DNA of 16,062 bases from a virus (taxonomy: Duplodnaviria; Heunggongvirae; Uroviricota; Caudoviricetes), in the IMG/VR virus record IMGVR_UViG_2698536355_000012, positions 1 to 16,062 of that record. One strand, given 5' to 3'. Positions 7,267 through 16,062 of this stretch are shown here, in pieces. Numbering within the stretch: position 1 is the first letter of the stretch; the number at the start of each line of letters is the position of its first letter. The notes below the pieces were generated by a model. It was not told the DNA's origin. It did no database searches and worked only from the letters and a program-made list of their open reading frames with translations. The position numbers were made by a program, and so were the translations under genes.

Positions 7267-7296
7267 CAAAAAAATAGCCAAAGGTAACTTTGGCTA
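7267..7296 (-). terminator. Rho-independent terminator downstream of the repressor gene
   Basis: On the minus strand a 9 bp stem (7275-7283 pairs with 7288-7296, loop GTAA) is followed by a run of seven T (plus A7 at 7268-7274), 15 nt after the cI stop codon. Confidence 0.7.
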
Positions 7297-7310
7297 CATA
7301 TCTGGGGGGG

Positions 7311-7970
7311 TTAAATGTTCTGGGTTATTTGGACGACTTTGCCGACAATTCGGCAGTTTCCGTCAATTTGGATAGGCTTGAAAGCTGGGTTAAGTGGCAT
7401 GAGATAGGCGAATGGGCTATCCCACACTAATTTTTTTACAGTCGCTTCGGTAGAGCCTTCCAGTGTGGCAACGACTATTTTCCCGTAAAGATCATCAATT
7501 TGCCCGAAATGTGGTTCAACGATAACAATGGAACCTTCTGGAATTGATGGCAATCCATGAGGGTTAGTCATTGACTCTCCGCGGACCACTAACCCGAAAA
7601 CCTCTTCAGATACATTAGCTGTAGTTTGTGTCCATGCAATCACGTCTGTAAGCCTTGAACTGGCGTAGGTTTCTGTCCATAGACCAGCCTGAACGGCTGA
7701 TATAATAGGCACTGCTGTTGGCGGCTTAAGGAAGGGGACTAATTTGATATCATCAACGTCAGCATCTCCTTTGCCATAGAGAATCCATTCCGGGGTTACC
7801 TGAAGTACACCAGCAAGTTGGTGTAAATTCTCACCATCCGGCTTCGTTGTTCCATTCTCCCATTTCGTTACAGACACGCGACTGACCCCAAGCTTTTTGG
7901 CAAGGGTAAGCTGAGTCATATCGAGCTGGACTCGACGCGAACGAATACGGTCTTTCATCTCTGTTTTCAT
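7311..7970 (-). CDS. cI: CI-type repressor (P22 C2-like; HTH plus S24 LexA-like autopeptidase domain)
   Basis: 219 aa. N-terminal HTH (QLTLAKKLGVSRVSVTKWENG), C-terminal GESM (Ser) and VKKL (Lys) in S24 peptidase positions. Overall pattern closely parallels recalled P22 C2 (PIIS.V.AG.W, GDSM, PEG, ATVKKLV, NGNC.I.G.VV). Confidence 0.9.
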   Translation of the reverse strand: MKTEMKDRIRSRRVQLDMTQLTLAKKLGVSRVSVTKWENGTTKPDGENLHQLAGVLQVTPEWILYGKGDADVDDIKLVPFLKPPTAVPIISAVQAGLWTETYASSRLTDVIAWTQTTANVSEEVFGLVVRGESMTNPHGLPSIPEGSIVIVEPHFGQIDDLYGKIVVATLEGSTEATVKKLVWDSPFAYLMPLNPAFKPIQIDGNCRIVGKVVQITQNI

Positions 7971-8063
7971 GTAACCAATGTTACCTCTTTTGATGGTAAC
8001 TGTTGTTTGCTATTTAATGTACCTTTTGTTACCTTGTGGTGCGTAAGGTAACTAGGAGGAATC
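7971..8063. promoter_or_regulatory. Divergent immunity control region (OR with PR/PRM)
   Basis: 93 bp AT-rich intergenic between divergent cI and cro. Contains palindromic half-sites GTTACC (7980-7985) and GGTAAC (7995-8000), a third 18 bp operator repeat at 8018-8035, GGTAAC at 8047-8052, and the cro RBS AGGAGG at 8054-8059. Exact -10/-35 assignments not resolved. Confidence 0.6.
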
Positions 8064-8261
8064 ATGCGCAAATCTGAAGTCATAGAGCACTTCGGCGGAG
8101 TAGCCAAAACTGCTAATGCATTAGGTATTTCCCATCCAGCAGTTTGTCGATGGGGGGAGATCATCCCCGAGAAGCAAGCTTTTGTGATTGAGCGGATCAC
8201 GAAAGGAAAGCTCAAGTACAGCTCCGTTCTTTATCAAAAGTCTAATCAGACAGTCGCGTAA
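8064..8261 (+). CDS. cro: Cro-like repressor (P22 Cro family)
   Basis: 65 aa; VIEHFGG...ALGIS..AV..W.EIIPEK....I...T.G.LKY mirrors recalled P22 Cro (VIDHFGT...ALGISDAAVSQWKEVIPEKDAYRLEIVTAGALKY). Strong RBS AGGAGG upstream of ATG 8064. Confidence 0.85.
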   Translation: MRKSEVIEHFGGVAKTANALGISHPAVCRWGEIIPEKQAFVIERITKGKLKYSSVLYQKSNQTVA

Positions 8262-8289
8262 CGAATACCACAGAAACAAGGGGACAACC

Positions 8290-8856
8290 GTGGATAAACA
8301 ACACTGGAAAGTCGAACGACAGCCCGCCTGGCTGGTGGCTGCCATTAAACGGACTATCGCCGAAATGCCTGGTGGATATGCCGAAGCTGCTGAATGGCTT
8401 GGCCTGTATCGCGCCGGAAAAGTGTCAACCGATGCGCTCTATAACCGGCTGCGCAGCGAAGGCGATCAGATTTTCCCGCTTGAGTGGGCGATGGTGCTCC
8501 AGGATGCCAGCGGCACTAAGTACGTCACCGATGCGATAGCCCGCCGTAGCGGTGGTGTGTTTGTGCCGCTGGTGGACATTGATGACGTCGATAACGGTGA
8601 CATCAACCAGCGCCTGATGGAGTCAATCGAATGGATCGGCAGACACTCACAGTACCTGCGCAAAGCGACCGCTGACGGCGTTATTGACCCGGCAGAACGT
8701 GAGCAAATCGAAGAGAACAGTTACCAGGTGATGGCGAAGTGGCAGGAGCATCTGACGCTGCTGTTTCGTGTGTTTTGTGCGCCGGAAAAAAGTGACGCCC
8801 GCGAGTGTGCAGCTCCGGGCGCCTTGGCGAACAACTCTTCGTGTATGGAGAAATAA
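8290..8856 (+). CDS. CII/YdaT-like early regulatory protein (family assignment tentative)
   Basis: 188 aa from GTG 8290, with AAGGGG 6 nt upstream; the listed ORF start 8188 overlaps cro and is treated as an extension. Position immediately after cro is the cII position; sequence recalled as resembling CP76/YdaT-type proteins but not verified. Confidence 0.45.
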   Translation: MDKQHWKVERQPAWLVAAIKRTIAEMPGGYAEAAEWLGLYRAGKVSTDALYNRLRSEGDQIFPLEWAMVLQDASGTKYVTDAIARRSGGVFVPLVDIDDVDNGDINQRLMESIEWIGRHSQYLRKATADGVIDPAEREQIEENSYQVMAKWQEHLTLLFRVFCAPEKSDARECAAPGALANNSSCMEK

Positions 8857-9028
8857 TCCGCATGACCAGTTTAACGGCTTTTAACCGTTTACCGCAACTG
8901 AGGATGATCCCGGTGCAGGGAACTCCGCTGTTTCGGTATGAACGCAGAATATCAAACCGCTGGGTGCCATGTAACCACAGTCGGGCGGCCGCAATTGTGG
9001 GTGTTTACTACAGGAAGGCGAAACGCTT

Positions 9029-9214
9029 ATGCGCGAAGTTAACCGAAGGTTCAAAGACCACTACGGCGTGCCCGTCCGTGTTATCCGCTGGGAGCCAGAA
9101 ACGCGCCGCGTTATCTACCTGCGGGAAGGGTATCCGCATGAATGCTTCAGCCCGCTTGAGCAGTTTCAGCGCAAGTTCAGGGAGATAAAGAACGACCATG
9201 AGCCAGATATTTGA
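9029..9214 (+). CDS. Hypothetical small basic protein
   Basis: 61 aa ORF with AGGAAGG about 10 nt upstream of ATG 9029; balanced, charged composition. Overlaps the replication gene start by 17 nt. The alternative ORF 8805/8862..9188 in another frame looks less protein-like. Confidence 0.35.
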   Translation: MREVNRRFKDHYGVPVRVIRWEPETRRVIYLREGYPHECFSPLEQFQRKFREIKNDHEPDI

Positions 9215-10133
9215 AATCGTTCAATCACTGTCGGGGCAAAGGAACTGCATCACTATTCCGGTTCCGTACCTTGATTTTTTCTCGGGTGACCAACAGGCGC
9301 ATGCTTTGGGCGCAGTCCTAAACCAGCTTGTGTTCTGGTCTGGAAAATCAGACCTGAATGATGGTTGGTTTTACAAAGAGCACAGCGAGCTGGCGGAGGA
9401 GATTCACGGTGTAAGCGAAGACCAGGTACAGCGCCTGGTAAACAAGATTTGTACCCGCTGGCTACCTGATGTAGTTCAGAAAACACAGCGGCAGGTTAAC
9501 GGCACTAAAAAGACGCATTACCGTATCGATGGTGAAGCGCTAATCAACGTTTTATTCCCGCCAACACTGGTTCCCGCAGAATCGCGGAATGGGAAACGCG
9601 AAGTCGCGGAACATGTTCCGCAGAATCACGGAACAGAAAACGCAGACCCGCGGAACCCTAACCGTGAAGTCGCGGAACCTATTCTTTATACAGATCATTA
9701 CTCAGATCACCACAAACAGATCAGTAAACCTTCTTGTCCGGTTGCTGCGCAACCCGACCCGGAAGTGGTGATTACTGACCATGCGATTGAAGTTTTGCTC
9801 CATCTGAACCAGGTCAGCGGATCGCGCTACCAGAAATCAAGGACCTCGCTGGAAAACATCCGCGCCCGTCTGCGGGAAGGTTACAGCGTCAATGACCTGA
9901 AGCTGGTTATTGACCTGAAGCACGAGCACTGGAACGGCAACGATGAGCAGTACCAGTACATGCGTCCTGAAACCCTGTTTGGGCCGAAAAAGTTCGAAGG
10001 GTACCTGTCCAGCGCTACCCGCTGGGATAGCAAAGGCCGCCCGGAGCGCCAGTACTGGGATGCAGCTCGTAAGCATGATCCTGTGAAGTTCGGGCCAGTT
10101 GATACCAAGATTCCTGAGGGGTTCAGGGGATGA
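9198..10133 (+). CDS. Phage replication initiator (O-like replisome organiser with conserved phage C-terminal domain)
   Basis: 311 aa. The C-terminal YMRPETLFGPKKFEGY segment matches a recalled conserved phage replication-protein C-terminus. An iteron array lies inside the coding sequence, as with lambda O. Length and position are consistent with the intact form of KplE1 yfdO. Confidence 0.7.
   Translation: MSQIFEIVQSLSGQRNCITIPVPYLDFFSGDQQAHALGAVLNQLVFWSGKSDLNDGWFYKEHSELAEEIHGVSEDQVQRLVNKICTRWLPDVVQKTQRQVNGTKKTHYRIDGEALINVLFPPTLVPAESRNGKREVAEHVPQNHGTENADPRNPNREVAEPILYTDHYSDHHKQISKPSCPVAAQPDPEVVITDHAIEVLLHLNQVSGSRYQKSRTSLENIRARLREGYSVNDLKLVIDLKHEHWNGNDEQYQYMRPETLFGPKKFEGYLSSATRWDSKGRPERQYWDAARKHDPVKFGPVDTKIPEGFRG
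9562..9734. repeat. Candidate replication origin: iteron array with 22 bp periodicity, a 16 bp palindrome and a GATC cluster
   Basis: Five units beginning (G/A)CGGAA(C/T) at 9584, 9606, 9628, 9650 and 9672, exactly 22 bp apart, with a partial unit at 9562-9583. Perfect palindrome GCGGAACATGTTCCGC at 9606-9621. Three CAGATCA repeats at 9691-9697, 9703-9709 and 9717-9723 in a more AT-rich stretch. Confidence 0.65.
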
Positions 10134-11029
10134 ATGAAAATAAATACTGCCAGGCGCTGGCGGAAATGCGCAGCAGGAACGCGCACAAGCTGAAAGAAGT
10201 TGGCGATCAGTGGCGCACGCCGGAGCTGCTGTTCTGGGGGATTAATGCGATGTTTGGCCCGCTGGTGCTGGACCTCTTTGCCGACGACAGCAACGCTAAA
10301 TGCCCTGCCTGGTATACCGCAGAAGACAACGCGCTGACGCAGGACTGGTCTGAGCGCCTGGCGGAACTCGGCGGCGCCGCGTTTGCTAACCCGCCATACA
10401 GCCGATCGCAGTACCACGAAAAGCAGGCAATCACCGGGATGACCCACATCATTAACCACACGATGGCCATGCGAGAGAAGGGCGGTCGCTATGTGTTTCT
10501 GGTCAAAGCCGCACCAAGCGAAACATGGTGGCCGGAAGATGCAGACCACATTGTTTTCATCCGCGGTCGCATCGGTTTTGACCTTCCGGAATGGTTTGTA
10601 CCGACAGACGACAAGCAGCAGCCCACCAGCGCATTTTTTGCGGGCGCCATCGCGGTGTTTGACAAGACCTGGCGCGGCGAGCGCTTCAGCTATATCCACC
10701 GCACAGAGCTGGAGGCTAAGGGGCGGGCTTTCATGGTGCTGGCCGAATTTGCCGCGGGCAAGGTTCAGCCACCAGCAACACCGGCGCCAGCGCAGGTTGA
10801 CCCGGTTGTAGCGCCAGCAGCATTACCTGATGTTGATTCGCGCATCTGGCCGCTTGAGGTTGGGCTGGTGTTCAACCAGGTTGAGGGCGCGGATTCTCTG
10901 GATGCATCGCAGCAGAACAAGCTGAAAGCGAACATTAACCAGCTGTGGCTTGAGCGTATGCCAACCAGCGAAATCATAACGGTTGCTGGTGGACTGGTCA
11001 GCAGCATGCAGGGGGTGACCAGTGCGTGA
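10130..11029 (+). CDS. Phage Dam-type N6-adenine DNA methyltransferase with C-terminal extension
   Basis: 299 aa. N-terminal DQWRTPELLF and the catalytic-type NPPY motif (FANPPYSRS) are characteristic of phage Dam-family MTases. ATG 10130 overlaps the replication gene stop (ATGA). About 110 C-terminal residues (Pro/Ala-rich linker plus extra segment) exceed the usual family length. Confidence 0.8.
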   Translation: MNENKYCQALAEMRSRNAHKLKEVGDQWRTPELLFWGINAMFGPLVLDLFADDSNAKCPAWYTAEDNALTQDWSERLAELGGAAFANPPYSRSQYHEKQAITGMTHIINHTMAMREKGGRYVFLVKAAPSETWWPEDADHIVFIRGRIGFDLPEWFVPTDDKQQPTSAFFAGAIAVFDKTWRGERFSYIHRTELEAKGRAFMVLAEFAAGKVQPPATPAPAQVDPVVAPAALPDVDSRIWPLEVGLVFNQVEGADSLDASQQNKLKANINQLWLERMPTSEIITVAGGLVSSMQGVTSA

Positions 11030-13019
11030 AATTATCGTTGATAACTTCGCCGGCGGCGGCGGTGCGTCTACCGGGATCGAACTCGCTATAGGGCGCAGCG
11101 TGGATATTGCCATCAACCACGATGAAAACGCCATCGCCATGCACAAGACCAACCACCCCGACACGCTGCATTACTGCGAATCGGTGTTTGATGTGGATCC
11201 GGTTGCCGCCACTGGCGCGCATCCTGTTGGCCTGGCATGGTTCAGCCCCGACTGCCGCCATTTTTCAAAGGCGAAAGGCGCGAAGCCGGTGAAGAAGGAA
11301 ATCCGCGGGCTCGCGTGGGTAGTTATCCGCTGGGCGCTGGAGAAGCGACCGCGCGTGATGATGCTGGAGAACGTCGAAGAGTTTAAAACGTGGGGACCGT
11401 TGCTACGTGAAATGCCGTTCATTAGCCATGCGGAGCGTCACCTTAGCGACTTCATCGGGCCACCAGTACCAGTTGAACAGAACCCGGATCGTGCACGAGC
11501 TGGCGAGACGTTTGCAGCGTTTGTCGGCATGCTGTCGACGGGGATCCAGGCTGATCATCCGGCGCTGGCCGAGGTCTGCGAATTCCTCTCTATTGAACCT
11601 GGTAGCGGGCAGGCGCAACAGCTGGTTGCCGGGCTCGGCTATGACGTCGATTATCGCGAGCTGCGCGCGTGCGACTATGGCGCGCCGACAATCCGTCGCC
11701 GTTTCTTTATGGTCATGCGCTGCGATGGTAAAGCCATTCACTGGCCTGAACCGACCCACGGGGATCCGAAATCACTGGAGGTGCAGAGCGGCAGGCTGGC
11801 GCCGTGGCGCACCGCGGCGGAGTGTATCGACTGGAATATCCCGGCGCTGTCTATCTTCGATCGCAAAAAGCCCCTGGCAGAAAATACCCTGAAGCGTATT
11901 GCGCGCGGTATCCAGCGGTTTGTCATCGAGAGCGCCTCGCCGTTCATCGTGAAATGTAACCACACCACGACGAAAGGTAGCTATGACTGTTTTCGTGGTC
12001 AGGAGCTGGGCGCACCGCTGCAGACCATCACCAAAACCCACGGCTACGCGATAGCGGTACCGCACCTGACTAAATTCCGCACCGGCGCAACCGGGCAGCC
12101 CGTTACCGAACCGGTTCCTACGGTGACCGCCGGCACATCGGCGCGCCCGGGCGGAAATGGTCATGCCCTCGGTGTTGTTGAGGCGGAGCTGACACCATTC
12201 CTGGCTGGCAACGGCGGCAGCGAATACCAGGCGAAGCCGCGCGCGCTGAATAAGCCTGCCCACACTATCCTGAAGCAATCCCGCGCCTGCCTGGTTACGC
12301 CAGTGATTGCCCGCCAGTTCGGCGCCAGTATCGGCCACCGGGCAGACGAACCTAGCGCAACGATTACTGCGGGCGGTGGCGGTAAATCGCAGCTGGTGAC
12401 ACCGACGCTGATCCAGATGGGCTACGGTGAGCGTCCGGGGCAGGAGCCGCGCGTCCTGCAACTTAATAACCCGCTGGGAACCGTTACCGCTGGTGGCAAT
12501 AAGTTTGCAACGGTGAGCGCATTCCTGGCGAAGCACTACGGCGGGAATTATACGGGCCCGGGCGTGGGTCTGGATGAGCCAGCCCACTCCGTGACGACGG
12601 TCGATCACCATGCTGTTGTTGCCTCTCATCTGGTCAAGCTGCGCGGAACATGCCGCGACGGGCAGCGCCTGGACGAACCTATGCCAACCATCACTGCCGG
12701 CGGCCAGCACGTAGGGGAGGTTCGGACATTCCTTGAAACCTACTGCGGGGAAAGCGAAGACGAATGGCTGGTGACGATCGAGGGTGTTAAGTACCAGATT
12801 GTTGATATCGGCATGCGTATGTTGCAGCCCCATGAGTTGTATAAGGCCCAGGGTTTCCCGGATGGCTACGTTATCGATCAGGACTACCGGGGCAACCGCT
12901 ACGCGAAGGATAAGCAGGTCGCGCGCTGCGGCAACGCCGTCCCGCCACCATTCGCCCGCGCGCTGGTGGAGGCAAACTTACCTGAGATGTGCGCGGATCC
13001 GCAACGGGAGGTGGCATGA
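11022..13019 (+). CDS. DNA cytosine-5 methyltransferase, unusually large with repeat-containing variable region
   Basis: 665 aa. Motif I FAGGGGASTG, motif IV PDCRHFSKAKG (catalytic Cys), motif VI ENVEEF, motif VIII-like PTIRRRFFMV, motif IX-like LQPHELYKAQGFPDGY, motif X CGNAVPPP. GTG 11022 overlaps the Dam stop. About 370 aa lie between motifs VIII and IX, with recurring P-x-T-[IV]-T-A-G-G units. Confidence 0.85.
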   Translation: MREIIVDNFAGGGGASTGIELAIGRSVDIAINHDENAIAMHKTNHPDTLHYCESVFDVDPVAATGAHPVGLAWFSPDCRHFSKAKGAKPVKKEIRGLAWVVIRWALEKRPRVMMLENVEEFKTWGPLLREMPFISHAERHLSDFIGPPVPVEQNPDRARAGETFAAFVGMLSTGIQADHPALAEVCEFLSIEPGSGQAQQLVAGLGYDVDYRELRACDYGAPTIRRRFFMVMRCDGKAIHWPEPTHGDPKSLEVQSGRLAPWRTAAECIDWNIPALSIFDRKKPLAENTLKRIARGIQRFVIESASPFIVKCNHTTTKGSYDCFRGQELGAPLQTITKTHGYAIAVPHLTKFRTGATGQPVTEPVPTVTAGTSARPGGNGHALGVVEAELTPFLAGNGGSEYQAKPRALNKPAHTILKQSRACLVTPVIARQFGASIGHRADEPSATITAGGGGKSQLVTPTLIQMGYGERPGQEPRVLQLNNPLGTVTAGGNKFATVSAFLAKHYGGNYTGPGVGLDEPAHSVTTVDHHAVVASHLVKLRGTCRDGQRLDEPMPTITAGGQHVGEVRTFLETYCGESEDEWLVTIEGVKYQIVDIGMRMLQPHELYKAQGFPDGYVIDQDYRGNRYAKDKQVARCGNAVPPPFARALVEANLPEMCADPQREVA

Positions 13020-13402
13020 AGCTGGTGCTGCCGTTTCCCCCGAGCGTTAACACATACTGGCGCGCCCCTAACAAGGGGCCGCTGGCTGGGCGCCATCTTA
13101 TCAGTGCCGACGGCCGCAAATACCAGAGCGCGGCCTGCGCGGCGATCATTGAGCAGTTGCGCAGGCTGCCGAAGCCATCAACAGCGCCTGCTGCAGTCGA
13201 AATCACCCTGTATCCGCCGGACGCGCGCCGCCGGGATCTGGACAACTACAACAAAGCGCTGTTTGACGCGCTGACGCATGCTGGCGTGTGGGAGGACGAC
13301 AGCCAGGTAAAACGCATGCTGGTGGAGTGGGGGCCAGTGGTGCCGAAAGGCAGGGTTGAGATAACGATCAGCCAATACGAACCGGCGGGTGCAGCCGCCT
13401 GA
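13016..13402 (+). CDS. rusA: RusA Holliday junction resolvase
   Basis: Start placed at ATG 13016, overlapping the C5-MTase stop (ATGA). LPFPPSVNTYWR ... RRRDLDNYNKALFDALTHAGVWEDDSQV ... GRVEITI closely parallels recalled E. coli RusA (LPWPPSNNRYYR ... [28 protein letters not shown] ... GRLELTI). Confidence 0.9.
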   Translation: MKLVLPFPPSVNTYWRAPNKGPLAGRHLISADGRKYQSAACAAIIEQLRRLPKPSTAPAAVEITLYPPDARRRDLDNYNKALFDALTHAGVWEDDSQVKRMLVEWGPVVPKGRVEITISQYEPAGAAA

Positions 13403-13416
13403 TATGGAGAAATAGC

Positions 13417-13713
13417 ATGAGCAAACTTAGAGGATTGGTGTGTAGGCCTGATTTTTTGACTATTAGCAGTAATGAGATTGCCAAGGAATTTGGTAAACGA
13501 CATGACAATGTACTTCAGGATATCAGAAGAATTCTTCGCTCCCTGAATCTTCCAGAGGACCACCTTGCAGGGGAATACGCGGATGAAAGAGGAAGGCTCT
13601 ACCCATGTTTCAGGCTTGATAAGAGACTTGCATTGGTGTTGCTTACCTCGTACGACAACGTCTCACGTCTTAAGGTAATTGAATATTTTATTGAAAACGG
13701 AGGGCGCCTGTGA
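13417..13713 (+). CDS. Rha-family N-terminal domain protein (short paralog)
   Basis: 98 aa, GGAGA 6 nt upstream of ATG 13417. Clearly paralogous to the N-terminal ~90 aa of the next gene (EIA...KRHD.V..DIR..L..LN....F.G.Y.D.RGR.YP...L.K.L.L.L...Y...). Visibly more AT-rich than neighbouring genes. Confidence 0.7.
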   Translation: MSKLRGLVCRPDFLTISSNEIAKEFGKRHDNVLQDIRRILRSLNLPEDHLAGEYADERGRLYPCFRLDKRLALVLLTSYDNVSRLKVIEYFIENGGRL

Positions 13714-14411
13714 AAAGTCTAGTGAATGTTAAGAGTGATCCCGGCTTCCCTGCAATGTCCAGCCTGGAGATCGCCGGGTTGTGTGATAAGCGACACGACC
13801 ATGTAATGGCTGATATTCGCAATATGCTCGAACAGCTCAATATTCAATCTCCCGAGTTTTCGGGAGATTACCGGGACGACCGCGGGCGCTGTTATCCGCT
13901 TTACCACCTGCCAAAAGACTTATGCCTTACGCTGGTCTCCGGGTACAACGTGGTGCTGCGTAAACGCATTATCGATCGCTGGCTTGAGCTGGAGAACGGT
14001 CAGCAGGTCAGTGTGCCGCAGTCACTCCCGGAAGCGCTTCGCCTGGCGGCAGACCTCGCTGAGCAGAAAGAGCAACTGACCCAGCAGCTGGCCGCCGCGG
14101 CGCCAAAGGTCGAGTTTGTCGATCGCTACTGTACCGCGAAAGGGTCAATGTCGTTTCGCCAGGTGGCAAAGCTCCTGAACGCCAAAGAGACCGACTTCCG
14201 TCTGTTCCTCATCGACAGCGACATCATGTACCGCCTCGGGGGCGTACTGACCCCGCGGCACCAGCACATTAACGCCGGGCGGTTTGAGGTAAAAACCGGG
14301 ACCACCAGTGAATCGAACTATGCATTCAGCCAGGCGCGCTTTACCGCAAAAGGCGTTGAGTGGATCGGTGGCCTGTGGACGGCGCATATCGCTAAGGGGC
14401 ATGCCGCGTGA
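13710..14411 (+). CDS. Rha-family phage regulatory protein / antirepressor with C-terminal KilAC-like domain
   Basis: 233 aa; GTG 13710 overlaps the upstream stop, GGAGG 6 nt upstream. N-terminal Rha-like domain plus a C-terminal region typical of antirepressor (AntA/AntB, KilAC) proteins; domain names from recall. Confidence 0.7.
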   Translation: MKSLVNVKSDPGFPAMSSLEIAGLCDKRHDHVMADIRNMLEQLNIQSPEFSGDYRDDRGRCYPLYHLPKDLCLTLVSGYNVVLRKRIIDRWLELENGQQVSVPQSLPEALRLAADLAEQKEQLTQQLAAAAPKVEFVDRYCTAKGSMSFRQVAKLLNAKETDFRLFLIDSDIMYRLGGVLTPRHQHINAGRFEVKTGTTSESNYAFSQARFTAKGVEWIGGLWTAHIAKGHAA

Positions 14412-15469
14412 GAGCACTGCTGACAGCCGAAACGGTACCGCGCCTCGGCCTGGTGCTGCTGAAGCCGGGTAAAGACCTGATGCGCCTGTTCAGTGGCGGC
14501 CGTGTGCTGGTGGAGTCCGAGCCCAGGAGTATGGCCGCGCTTCCGTCAGGCCGTGTTCCCGATGCCCGGCAGCCGCTGGCTGATGATCCGCTTCTTATTT
14601 CCTTCTTCACCGACGAGCGGGTCATACGCGCCGCCGGCGGATTGCCCGGGCTCGAGTCCTGGCTGCTGCACCGTGTGCGTCAGTGCCAGTATCAGCACTC
14701 CGGCTACCACCATAAGGAGCTGGTCACAATGCGCCACCCGCCCGGGGCGATGGTGCTGTGCTGGCATTGCGATAACGAGCTACGCCAGCAAACGACAGAG
14801 CAGCTGGCGGAGCTGGCGCGCCGTAACGTTGTCGCCTGGGTGATCGATACCGTTCTGGCAGCGCTGGGTTTCAATAATGAGCGGGAATTGTCGCTGGGTG
14901 AGCTGTGCTGGTGGGCGGTCTGTGCAGGTATCGCCGGTGCAATCCCTGAAACGATGGCCCGCCGCGCGCTGCAGATGCCTGATGAGCCGTTTCTGCCGTT
15001 TTACCGGGAAAGCGATATTGTGCCAATGCCGCCGGCCACCAGCATCCTGCAGGAGAAGGCTGCAACCGCAGGAGCAGTAAAACAGCGCAGGAGCAGCACA
15101 AACCCGCAGGAGGTGCAGAAGCAGCCCGCAGTGCTGGCGCTGAGGATCGATCCGGAATCGCCGGAATCATTCATGCTGCGACCGAAGCGCCGCCGCTGGG
15201 TAAACGAGAAATACACCCGCTGGGTAAAGGTTCAGCCCTGTGAAGGTTGCCGCCGTCCGGCAGACGACCCGCACCATATCATCGGGCATGGTATGGGCGG
15301 TACAGCCACAAAAGCCCACGACCTCTTCGTGATCCCTCTGTGCAGAGAGTGCCACGACGAGTTGCACGCCGATGTAGCGGCATTCGAGAAGAAGCACGGC
15401 ACGCAGCTGGAGCTGCTGTTTCGTGTTCTGGATCGGGCGCTGGCGATCGGCGTAATTGTAAAAGCTTAA
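14408..15469 (+). CDS. NinG/DUF968-like protein with C-terminal HNH-like Cys/His motif
   Basis: 353 aa; GTG 14408 overlaps the upstream stop. C-terminus CEGCRRPADDPHHIIGHGMGG...CRECHDELH resembles the zinc/HNH-like motif of DUF968-type phage proteins usually found between rusA/nin genes and Q. Confidence 0.55.
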   Translation: MRALLTAETVPRLGLVLLKPGKDLMRLFSGGRVLVESEPRSMAALPSGRVPDARQPLADDPLLISFFTDERVIRAAGGLPGLESWLLHRVRQCQYQHSGYHHKELVTMRHPPGAMVLCWHCDNELRQQTTEQLAELARRNVVAWVIDTVLAALGFNNERELSLGELCWWAVCAGIAGAIPETMARRALQMPDEPFLPFYRESDIVPMPPATSILQEKAATAGAVKQRRSSTNPQEVQKQPAVLALRIDPESPESFMLRPKRRRWVNEKYTRWVKVQPCEGCRRPADDPHHIIGHGMGGTATKAHDLFVIPLCRECHDELHADVAAFEKKHGTQLELLFRVLDRALAIGVIVKA

Positions 15470-15483
15470 GTATGGAGAGCAGA

Positions 15484-16062
15484 ATGATCAATCCTTCAGT
15501 AGTTGGTAAAAGCGATGAAATGGTGCGCTTACGTACACTTGAGAGCGTCTGGATTCAAGGGAAATTGAGAATGTGGGGATGCTGGTCCTGCATTGGTAGC
15601 GGTTCTGGAGGCAACATGTTTAACCAGTTGTTGGCATCAGGAAAAGTTACCAAAACAGCTATTAACGATGCTATTCGCCGTATGAAAAAATCTGGTATTA
15701 CCAAACCTGAGTTGGAAGCGTTTTTCCTCGAAATTCTCAGGGGAAAGAAAAAAAGCAATCTTGCGTTCTGCACGGATGAGGAAGGACTGGCGACTGACGC
15801 CGTCCTCAGTGAAGTGCTGGTGCGTCCTGGGCACAAGCGTTTGTACCATGTAATTAGTGATCGCTATCGTTATCGAATGAGTAAGAAGGAAATGGCTCGA
15901 CAATTAAACGAGCGACATCCTGAATGGTGCTTGCGAACATGTGAAAGCAGAATTGATGTCTGGTTAAATATGGCGGAATCGATGCTATATCAACCAATGT
16001 GTGATGCTTTCGACACAAATGGCGACAGATTTTCATTGACGGATTGCGCAGAAACTGCTTAA
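15484..16062 (+). CDS. Putative late-gene antiterminator Q-like protein
   Basis: 192 aa from ATG 15484 (GGAGAG upstream); the listed ORF start 15247 overlaps the previous gene and is treated as an extension. Last gene of the early-right operon, basic with a Cys cluster (WGCWSC). Assignment is by position and general character, not verified similarity. Confidence 0.45.
   Translation: MINPSVVGKSDEMVRLRTLESVWIQGKLRMWGCWSCIGSGSGGNMFNQLLASGKVTKTAINDAIRRMKKSGITKPELEAFFLEILRGKKKSNLAFCTDEEGLATDAVLSEVLVRPGHKRLYHVISDRYRYRMSKKEMARQLNERHPEWCLRTCESRIDVWLNMAESMLYQPMCDAFDTNGDRFSLTDCAETA

Follow-up and report, generated by a model that had tools for sequence, protein, structure and literature searches.

A prophage C5-cytosine methyltransferase with a candidate tandem array of seven small target recognition cassettes

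The Caudoviricetes record IMGVR_UViG_2698536355_000012 includes a stretch of 16,062 nucleotides (nt; positions 1 to 16,062), referred to here in its whole length as the window. It comprises the left and middle parts of a lambdoid prophage, from the integrase to the Q region, and contig L009 is identical to it. On the plus strand, at 11022-13019, the list of open reading frames (ORFs) places a gene with a GTG start that encodes a C5-cytosine DNA methyltransferase (C5-MTase) of 665 amino acids (aa). The subject of this report is this enzyme and the array of seven short tandem units within it, which are probably alternative target recognition domains (TRDs).

The gene product is a C5-cytosine DNA methyltransferase. 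It is 100% identical to protein P0001, labelled 'DNA cytosine methyltransferase [Escherichia coli]', and is matched in three stretches by PF00145 with E = 5e-21 and 75.8 bits (cut-off 22). The NCBIfam superfamily model TIGR00675 falls short of its cut-off (56 versus 100.65 bits), since the match is interrupted by the variable region of the enzyme. A motif scan located motif I (FAGGGG, aa 9-14, 11046-11063, plus strand), which binds S-adenosylmethionine and is invariant in an alignment of 130 sequences. On the same strand it is followed by motif IV (SPDCRHFS, aa 75-82, 11244-11267) with the catalytic Cys78, motif VI (ENV, aa 116-118, 11367-11375), motif VIII (PTIRRRFF, aa 222-229, 11685-11708, RRR at 225), motif IX (RMLQPHEL, aa 599-606, 12816-12839, QPHE at 602), and motif X (GNAVPP, aa 637-642, 12930-12947). 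These were also found by motif scan, and motifs IV, VIII, IX and X in addition by alignment to solved methyltransferases. An earlier note on this DNA, made from the letters alone, had stated that all canonical C5-MTase motifs are present. This is correct for motifs I, IV, VI, VIII, IX and X, which stand in canonical order, but motif IV lacks the Pro-Cys dipeptide, as Asp77 stands before Cys78. S75-P76-D77-C78 is invariant across the 130 aligned relatives, and SPDC is found in 126 of 129 cluster representatives. The SPDC form of motif IV appears to be the mark of a distinct catalytic subfamily, and the window enzyme is presumably catalytically active despite its Asp-Cys.

By sequence and by structure, the best PDB match of the enzyme is 3g7u, a putative DNA methyltransferase from E. 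coli prophage CP-933R, and thus likewise an enterobacterial prophage C5-MTase. With 376 aa, 3g7u has a variable region of ordinary size and aligns with the window enzyme at the catalytic motifs only. A segment of 21 aa that separates motifs VI and VIII in part (aa 131-152, 11412-11477) bears no relation to the repeat units described below and is shared by about half of the close homologues.

Motifs VIII and IX are separated by 369 aa, close to the approximately 370 aa given in the earlier note, and this interval contains seven tandem units of 32-34 aa. The unit cores follow the pattern P-x-x-[TS]-[IV]-[TL] and are located at T335, T367, T415, T447, T487, S523 and T556, with spacings of 32-48 aa. 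All seven units were delimited by matches to a unit profile on the plus strand, and are named by type according to 14 recurrent unit types, obtained by clustering 1,174 units. Unit 1 (type C, aa 322-353, 11985-12080) reads DCFRGQELGAPLQTITKTHGYAIAVPHLTKFR and matches the profile with 35-38 bits. It is followed by unit 2 (type F, aa 354-387, 12081-12182) with the core PVPTVTAGT, unit 3 (type G, aa 402-433, 12225-12320) with the core KPAHTILK, and unit 4 (type B, aa 434-466, 12321-12419) with the core DEPSATITAGGGG. The second half of the array consists of unit 5 (type H, aa 474-505, 12441-12536; core NNPLGTVTAGG), unit 6 (type D, aa 510-541, 12549-12644; core DEPAHSVTTVDHHAVVA), and unit 7 (type A, aa 543-574, 12648-12743; core DEPMPTITAGGQHVGEV). 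The architecture of the enzyme is therefore C-F-G-B-H-D-A. The repeats on which the earlier note was built were all recovered, namely PTVTAGT at aa 366, ATITAGG at 446, GTVTAGG at 486 and PTITAGG at 555, together with the degenerate copies QTITK at 334, PAHTIL at 412 and PAHSVTT at 520.

Each cassette has the same layout: a short loop, often with G-Q or G-H, leads into (D/N)(E/K)P-x-x-[TS]-[IV]-T, followed by a glycine-rich loop and a hydrophobic strand. In unit 4, for example, G-H-R-A-D-E-P-S-A-T-I-T-A-G-G-G-G precedes the strand. A further, terminal unit of type E is degenerate in the window enzyme and its closest homologues (aa 576-592, 12747-12797), where GESEDEWLVTIEGVKYQ replaces EPLxTVTTxDRFGLVTVxGxxYQ. 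The P-x-x-T-V-T core of this unit is gone in the window enzyme and kept in phiNP, ZF40 and LPM4. The remnant LVTIEGVKYQ (aa 583-592, 12768-12797, plus strand) still gives a weak match to profile positions 23-32. In many close homologues a 17-aa acidic helix (e.g., LAVDGYDEQRAQQALE) follows aa 569; it is likewise unconnected with the units and is absent from the window enzyme.

The repetition of the units is beyond chance. In Smith-Waterman comparisons against shuffled sequences, units 2 and 7 align with z = 8.2, units 4 and 7 with z = 9.3, units 5 and 7 with z = 10.6, and units 3 and 6 with z = 6.3. The unit profile comprises 32 positions and was built from the units of the window enzyme and of four phage homologues. 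When applied to the six-frame translation of the whole window, it gave seven matches of 21-41 bits, all within the C5-MTase gene (11985-12743). In 163 family members it finds 5-10 matches per protein, compared with about 0.01 per shuffled protein. As DNA, the copies in the array are only weakly alike and do not exceed 73% identity over 45 nt. The array must therefore be old, and arose neither by recent duplication nor as an artefact of assembly. An antisense ORF of 353 aa lies wholly within the methyltransferase gene (11772-12833, minus strand), in a stretch of high G+C content (0.59-0.64). With no match in Pfam, and in DNA of this composition, it was rejected as a real gene and is most probably a by-product of the high G+C content.

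The behaviour of the units in closely related enzymes was followed in an alignment of 57 homologues, which are 79-93% identical to the window enzyme. Unit 2 (aa 349-389) is missing as a whole from P0086, unit 3 (aa 394-428) from P0036 and P0045, unit 4 (aa 424-457) from P0114, and unit 5 (aa 459-497) from P0025, P0057, P0071 and P0092. Conversely, an additional unit of 35 or 32 aa is inserted after aa 532 in many of the 57 proteins. Among the natural variants with additional units, P0009 has gained an M unit and P0024 one of D type. Such single-unit insertions and deletions span 32-41 aa, and their junctions all lie in one register, within the strand after the core. In the junction SRSC|LVTPTLIQ, for instance, the tail of unit 3 is joined to the matching point of unit 4. 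The units thus appear to be separable cassettes, which come and go one at a time between homologues with 80-90% identity elsewhere.

A wider sample was collected by searches seeded with the homologues of Pectobacterium phage ZF40 and Pseudomonas phage UAntarctica. More than 45 unit architectures were distinguished in 163 proteins, with type C at the start and A or A-E at the end. The opening unit C is near-universal (152 of 163 proteins), as are type B (154 of 163) and type A, which is found in all 163. In between, the array varies among types F, G, J, B, H, D, M, K, I, L and N, occasionally with altered order, as in C-F-H-D-B-A-E. In most relatives the type-E unit (EPLxTVTTxDRFGLVTV) abuts motif IX directly. 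Unit types are conserved from Escherichia phages to those of Pectobacterium, Aeromonas and Pseudomonas.

When 1.84 billion cluster representatives (50%-identity clusters) were searched exhaustively, 2,508 clusters matched the window enzyme with E-values of 1e-30 or better, and the unit array was checked in the best 150 or so. The 129 complete top representatives contain 1-11 units, with a mode of 7. Among cultured phages, Psychrobacillus phage PVJ1 has a short member with two units, and Vibrio phage K478a one with three. In P0479 the profile gives one confident unit match. Methylase homologues at 76-91% identity are found in Enterobacter, Klebsiella, Citrobacter, Salmonella and Kluyvera, and more distant ones in Pectobacterium, Yersinia and Serratia. 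The variable region is matched by 111 phage records, including Escherichia phage Flotzy (94%) and phages of Pseudomonas, Vibrio, Aeromonas, Burkholderia and Rhizobium. Four members from Pseudomonas phages (P0285, P0307, P0321 and P0338) reach 980-1070 aa and harbour intein/homing-endonuclease domains (PF14890, PF14528, PF05204) inside the methyltransferase.

Purifying selection constrains the array as strongly as the catalytic core. In a codon comparison with the gene of the E. coli ST536 prophage, the array has a ratio of nonsynonymous to synonymous substitution rates (dN/dS) of 0.035, compared with 0.044 in the N-terminal catalytic part, and the synonymous rate (dS) is about 1.1. The values of single units range from 0 to 0.10, and comparison with a Klebsiella phage gene gives the same pattern. 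Among close homologues, units 1-6 have mean pairwise identities of 0.87-0.93 and unit 7 one of 0.79, compared with 0.89 for the catalytic core. The conservation and low dN/dS of the units speak against reading them as a disordered linker or as decaying pseudo-domains.

In the literature consulted, only a few Bacillus phages are described as having multispecific cytosine methyltransferases (PMC12707154, PMC8936443). Their tandem TRDs confer multiple recognition sequences (PMC8936443), and the temperate phages that carry them are thus guarded against many restriction systems (PMC12707154). For comparison, the genes of SPR, phi3T, rho11s and H2 (M.SPRI, M.Phi3TI, M.Rho11sI and M.H2I; K02124, M13488, X05242 and M72412) were translated and aligned. 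Between motifs VIII and IX, SPR has three x-[SP]-x-T-[LIV]-[TSN] cores, phi3T two, and rho11s and H2 four each, with one core per cassette. The parallel drawn in the earlier note, which had Bacillus enzymes carrying tandem TRDs with a Thr-hydrophobic dipeptide in the same position, is thus borne out. Like the window enzyme, these are phage-borne orphan C5-MTases with tandem T-[LIV] cassettes at this site. The four enzymes are otherwise near-identical and differ by whole blocks of 33-58 aa with one core each, just as the relatives of the window enzyme differ by entire cassettes. In other respects the two groups diverge. Motif IV of the Bacillus enzymes contains PC, in contrast to SPDC in the window enzyme, which marks a different catalytic subfamily. 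The Bacillus enzymes contain 2-4 units, compared with seven in the window enzyme and 1-11 in its family. Unlike them, the window enzyme belongs to a Gram-negative host and has a Dam-type adenine methylase as its partner. Finally, the specificities of the Bacillus enzymes were mapped by genetics, and multispecificity of the window enzyme is predicted from its sequence.

The closest link between the two groups is provided by unit 6 of the window enzyme (type D, LDEPAHSVTTVDHHAVVASHL), which resembles the cassette common to all four Bacillus enzymes (GEPAFTVNTIDRHGVAVGEY); this is their last TRD, EPAFTVNTIDRHGVA. The pair has a Smith-Waterman score of 52 (z = 10, equalled by 0 of 500 shuffles) and ranks top among 70 type-by-cassette comparisons. 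BLASTP of the C-terminal third of the window enzyme against the C-terminal quarter of the SPR enzyme recovers exactly this pair with E = 3e-4, and the ZF40 C-terminus gave no match to SPR in a BLASTP search. Alignment of the unit profile with a profile of the Bacillus cores scores 14.9, compared with 6.1 +/- 1.5 for column shuffles, none of which reached this value in 200 trials. As both profiles are Thr-anchored, this score indicates a shared motif and is not proof of homology. The D/E unit class may descend from a GGCC-type TRD, because all four Bacillus enzymes methylate GGCC and the same EPAFTV string is found in the GGCC enzyme M.HaeIII; GGCC specificity is not claimed for unit 6.

Solved monospecific enzymes contain one core each, which is NEPAFTV at 231-237 in M.HaeIII, a GGCC enzyme (PMC2790894), and GQ237...T250-L-S-A-Y-G-G-G in M.HhaI. 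In these structures the TL dipeptide lies between two base-recognition loops (PMC2790894). Judged by its sequence pattern, each window unit matches this loop 1 / Thr-Leu / loop 2 core of a single TRD. The catalytic fold is common to all three enzymes, but M.HhaI and M.HaeIII have one such element and one target, and the window enzyme has seven elements. Against the TRD segment of M.HaeIII, units 3 and 5 reach z = 5.4-5.8 (0 of 1000 shuffles equal) and unit 4 reaches z = 4.7 (2 of 1000). No window unit is significantly similar to the M.HhaI segment in the same kind of shuffle test. A search of the PDB with units 6-7 as plain query returned no match, and for the SPR segment comprising TRD and motif IX, motifs IX-X alone align. 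The prophage enzyme M.(phi)BssHII from Bacillus stearothermophilus is described as having many specificities derived from several TRDs (PMC8936443), which is similar to what is proposed here. According to the title of the paper on this enzyme, its TRDs occupy separated locations, and by that description it is set apart from the window enzyme with its contiguous units.

Structure prediction, which had been suggested in the earlier note, was performed in two AlphaFold2 runs, and the array (aa 309-565) was left without a confident model. With the 57 close homologues as input, the predicted local distance difference test (pLDDT) score of the variable region is 20-27. In both runs the catalytic domain came out well, its parts scoring mostly 75-98 in the model from 130 diverse homologues. 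A Foldseek search therefore informs on the catalytic core only. It matched this core with a probability of 1.00 to 3g7u, DNMT1, M.HaeIII and M.HhaI, and MET1 was also among the top matches. The unfolded appearance of the array in these models is compatible with beads on a string, which would become ordered only on DNA, and could equally result from misaligned shuffled cassettes in the input alignment.

Gene order places the enzyme in a typical lambdoid setting. The integrase is followed by early-left genes, CI, Cro, CII, a DUF4222 protein, a replication-region protein, Dam, the C5-MTase, RusA, Rha, an antirepressor, a DUF968 protein, Q, holins and lysis genes, and terminase. No nuclease gene adjoins the C5-MTase in the window or in the gene order of L009, so that the earlier description as a prophage-borne orphan stands. 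The CI-type repressor is encoded at 7311-7970 on the minus strand and combines a helix-turn-helix domain (PF01381) with an S24 peptidase domain (PF00717), in accordance with the gene order of L009. The C5-MTase lies downstream of CI, Cro and CII, and the plus strand between about 8560 and 15400 contains no promoter-like or terminator-like sites. Because of this arrangement, the enzyme is predicted to belong to the delayed-early operon, to be silent under CI together with the adenine methylase and the rest of the rightward early operon, and to be expressed after induction. Published lysogen methylomes of Klebsiella and E. coli ST131 report no extra or matching 5-methylcytosine (5mC) motifs, which agrees with the predicted expression after induction only. 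The element is uncommon in E. coli, with DNA matches to 9000-14500 in 45 of 5,426 complete genomes, none of them reaching 80% coverage.

The window enzyme is probably a phage orphan C5-MTase with a tandem array of seven alternative mini-TRDs, similar in kind to the Bacillus phage enzymes but with a different catalytic subfamily and more cassettes. As such, it would methylate several distinct sites. The unit count limits how many specificities the enzyme can have, but does not say how many it has. In the proposed mechanism, one cassette at a time would be docked on the catalytic domain above the flipped cytosine, and each active cassette would steer methylation to its own short target sequence. 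Prophage induction would relieve silencing by CI, so that the C5-MTase is made in the lytic phase. Progeny DNA would then carry methylation at several families of sites on leaving the cell, and would resist several restriction systems in the next host. Swap, loss and gain of cassettes in relatives would retune the set of protected sites.

Several points weigh against this interpretation. With unit 6 set aside, the tie to the Bacillus TRDs appears to be a shared motif and not demonstrated homology. Hidden Markov models of the units, built from the seven window units or from those of the family, land on the Bacillus TRD cores with about 0 bits, which is not significant, and when the full family is matched profile to profile with the Bacillus enzymes, the hhalign alignment covers motifs IV-VIII only (85% probability). 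The unit profile found nothing significant among all PDB sequences, the lone chance match having E = 0.43. Over aa 309-565, pLDDT remained below 50 and secondary structure was absent with the shallow alignment and with that of 130 diverse sequences alike. At 32-41 aa, the units of the window family are at the small end of the range of Bacillus cassettes (33-58 aa). The near-universal units C, B and A would equally suit a structural scaffold. Inactive 'pseudo' TRDs were reportedly described in Bacillus phage enzymes by Lange et al. in Nature in 1991. In the searchable literature, with REBASE outside its scope, no study of the window family or of any Gram-negative multispecific C5-MTase was found. 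Moreover, DNA with heavy C5 methylation of cytosine would be open to attack by McrBC-type nucleases, which occur in E. coli (PMC2993543).

An alternative that is considered unlikely is that the units jointly form one composite DNA-binding domain, e.g., a repetitive beta structure. Such an enzyme would have a single long target or a relaxed, near-context-free specificity, and would provide broad protection through low specificity in the manner of M.EcoGII. The latter is a silent prophage orphan methylase (PMC5778455) for which a broad anti-restriction role on cell exit has been proposed (PMC12707154). It is an adenine N6 enzyme with another fold, and its breadth stems from missing specificity, in contrast to the reader array of the window enzyme. 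That prophage methylases without sequence specificity are known from E. coli (PMC5778455, PMC4659465) speaks for a composite domain, as does the fixed first or last placement of the near-universal units (C, B and A, with E in most relatives). A length of 32-41 aa is also short for an autonomous reader. The loss and gain of single units at 80-90% identity, the more than 45 architectures, and the range from 1 to 11 units are, however, hard to square with one joint domain. In addition, every unit repeats an element that is found once per TRD in solved enzymes, and no compact domain was found by AlphaFold2.

It is more doubtful still that most units are inactive relics and that the enzyme is mono- or bispecific, with one or two cassettes, e.g., the terminal ones, reading DNA. 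The terminal type-E unit of the window enzyme, which has lost its core, would be such a relic, and the inactive TRDs said to occur in Bacillus phage enzymes would be precedents. The retained units, in contrast, are all under strong purifying selection (dN/dS of 0-0.10 at dS of about 1). Units 1-6 are conserved like the catalytic core, with a somewhat lower value for unit 7 (0.79 versus 0.89), and conservation of unit types extends from Escherichia phages to those of Pectobacterium, Aeromonas and Pseudomonas. A very improbable alternative is that the enzyme is not a protective methylase but installs another C5 group (a CmoX-like carboxymethyl) toward hypermodification, or serves phage gene regulation or packaging: the C5-carboxymethyltransferase 8yf3 appears in the Foldseek list, motif IV is atypical with DC for PC, and P1 uses Dam methylation in packaging (PMC12707154), but 8yf3 ranks below ordinary methyltransferases, the operon is devoid of cofactor-synthesis, TET/5mYOX and glycosyltransferase genes, and a regulatory role would leave the array of interchangeable reader cassettes unexplained.

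The reading of the units as alternative mini-TRDs can be extended to the whole family, although this extension is put forward only tentatively. Phages of proteobacteria may possess a very large C5-MTase family in which 1-11 autonomous mini-readers, about 35 aa long and each with its own site, form an array that can be expanded and shuffled. The window enzyme could then recognise up to seven motifs, which is beyond any characterised methyltransferase, and the cassettes could be the smallest known self-contained reading modules for a base-flipping enzyme. The principle of a multi-TRD enzyme is already known; what appears to be new is the family and its scale, with thousands of clusters and up to 11 cassettes. 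If multispecificity is confirmed, the strategy would be common in prophages of Escherichia, Klebsiella, Enterobacter, Citrobacter, Salmonella, Pectobacterium, Yersinia, Serratia, Pseudomonas, Vibrio and Aeromonas, with cassette numbers far above those of the Bacillus enzymes. Restriction barriers among clinically important Enterobacterales would be less of an obstacle to temperate phages and transduced DNA than current annotation implies, and unexpected 5mC motifs after prophage induction would find an explanation. The cassettes would also constitute a natural library of small, swappable DNA-reading elements for engineering methyltransferase specificity. The multispecificity hypothesis can be tested directly on the natural variants that differ by a single cassette.

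The C5-MTase gene overlaps with both of its neighbours. Downstream, the gene of a RusA resolvase (PF05866, 13016-13402, plus strand; L009 gene call) begins with an ATG that overlaps the methyltransferase stop codon in ATGA. Upstream, a Dam-type N6-adenine methyltransferase (PF05869, E = 1e-43) is encoded at 10130-11029 on the plus strand, and its stop overlaps the start of the C5-MTase by 8 nt. From this overlap, the C5-MTase appears to be translationally coupled to the adenine methylase. Both Citrobacter phage phiNP and E. coli ST536 carry the same pair of Dam and C5-MTase. The Dam-type enzyme has a tail of about 100 aa past the PF05869 domain, and its homologue in E. coli ST536 comprises 444 aa. 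In the PHROG family phrog_33262, relatives of the Dam-type enzyme are fused to a domain similar to 3'-phosphoadenosine-5'-phosphosulphate (PAPS) reductase.

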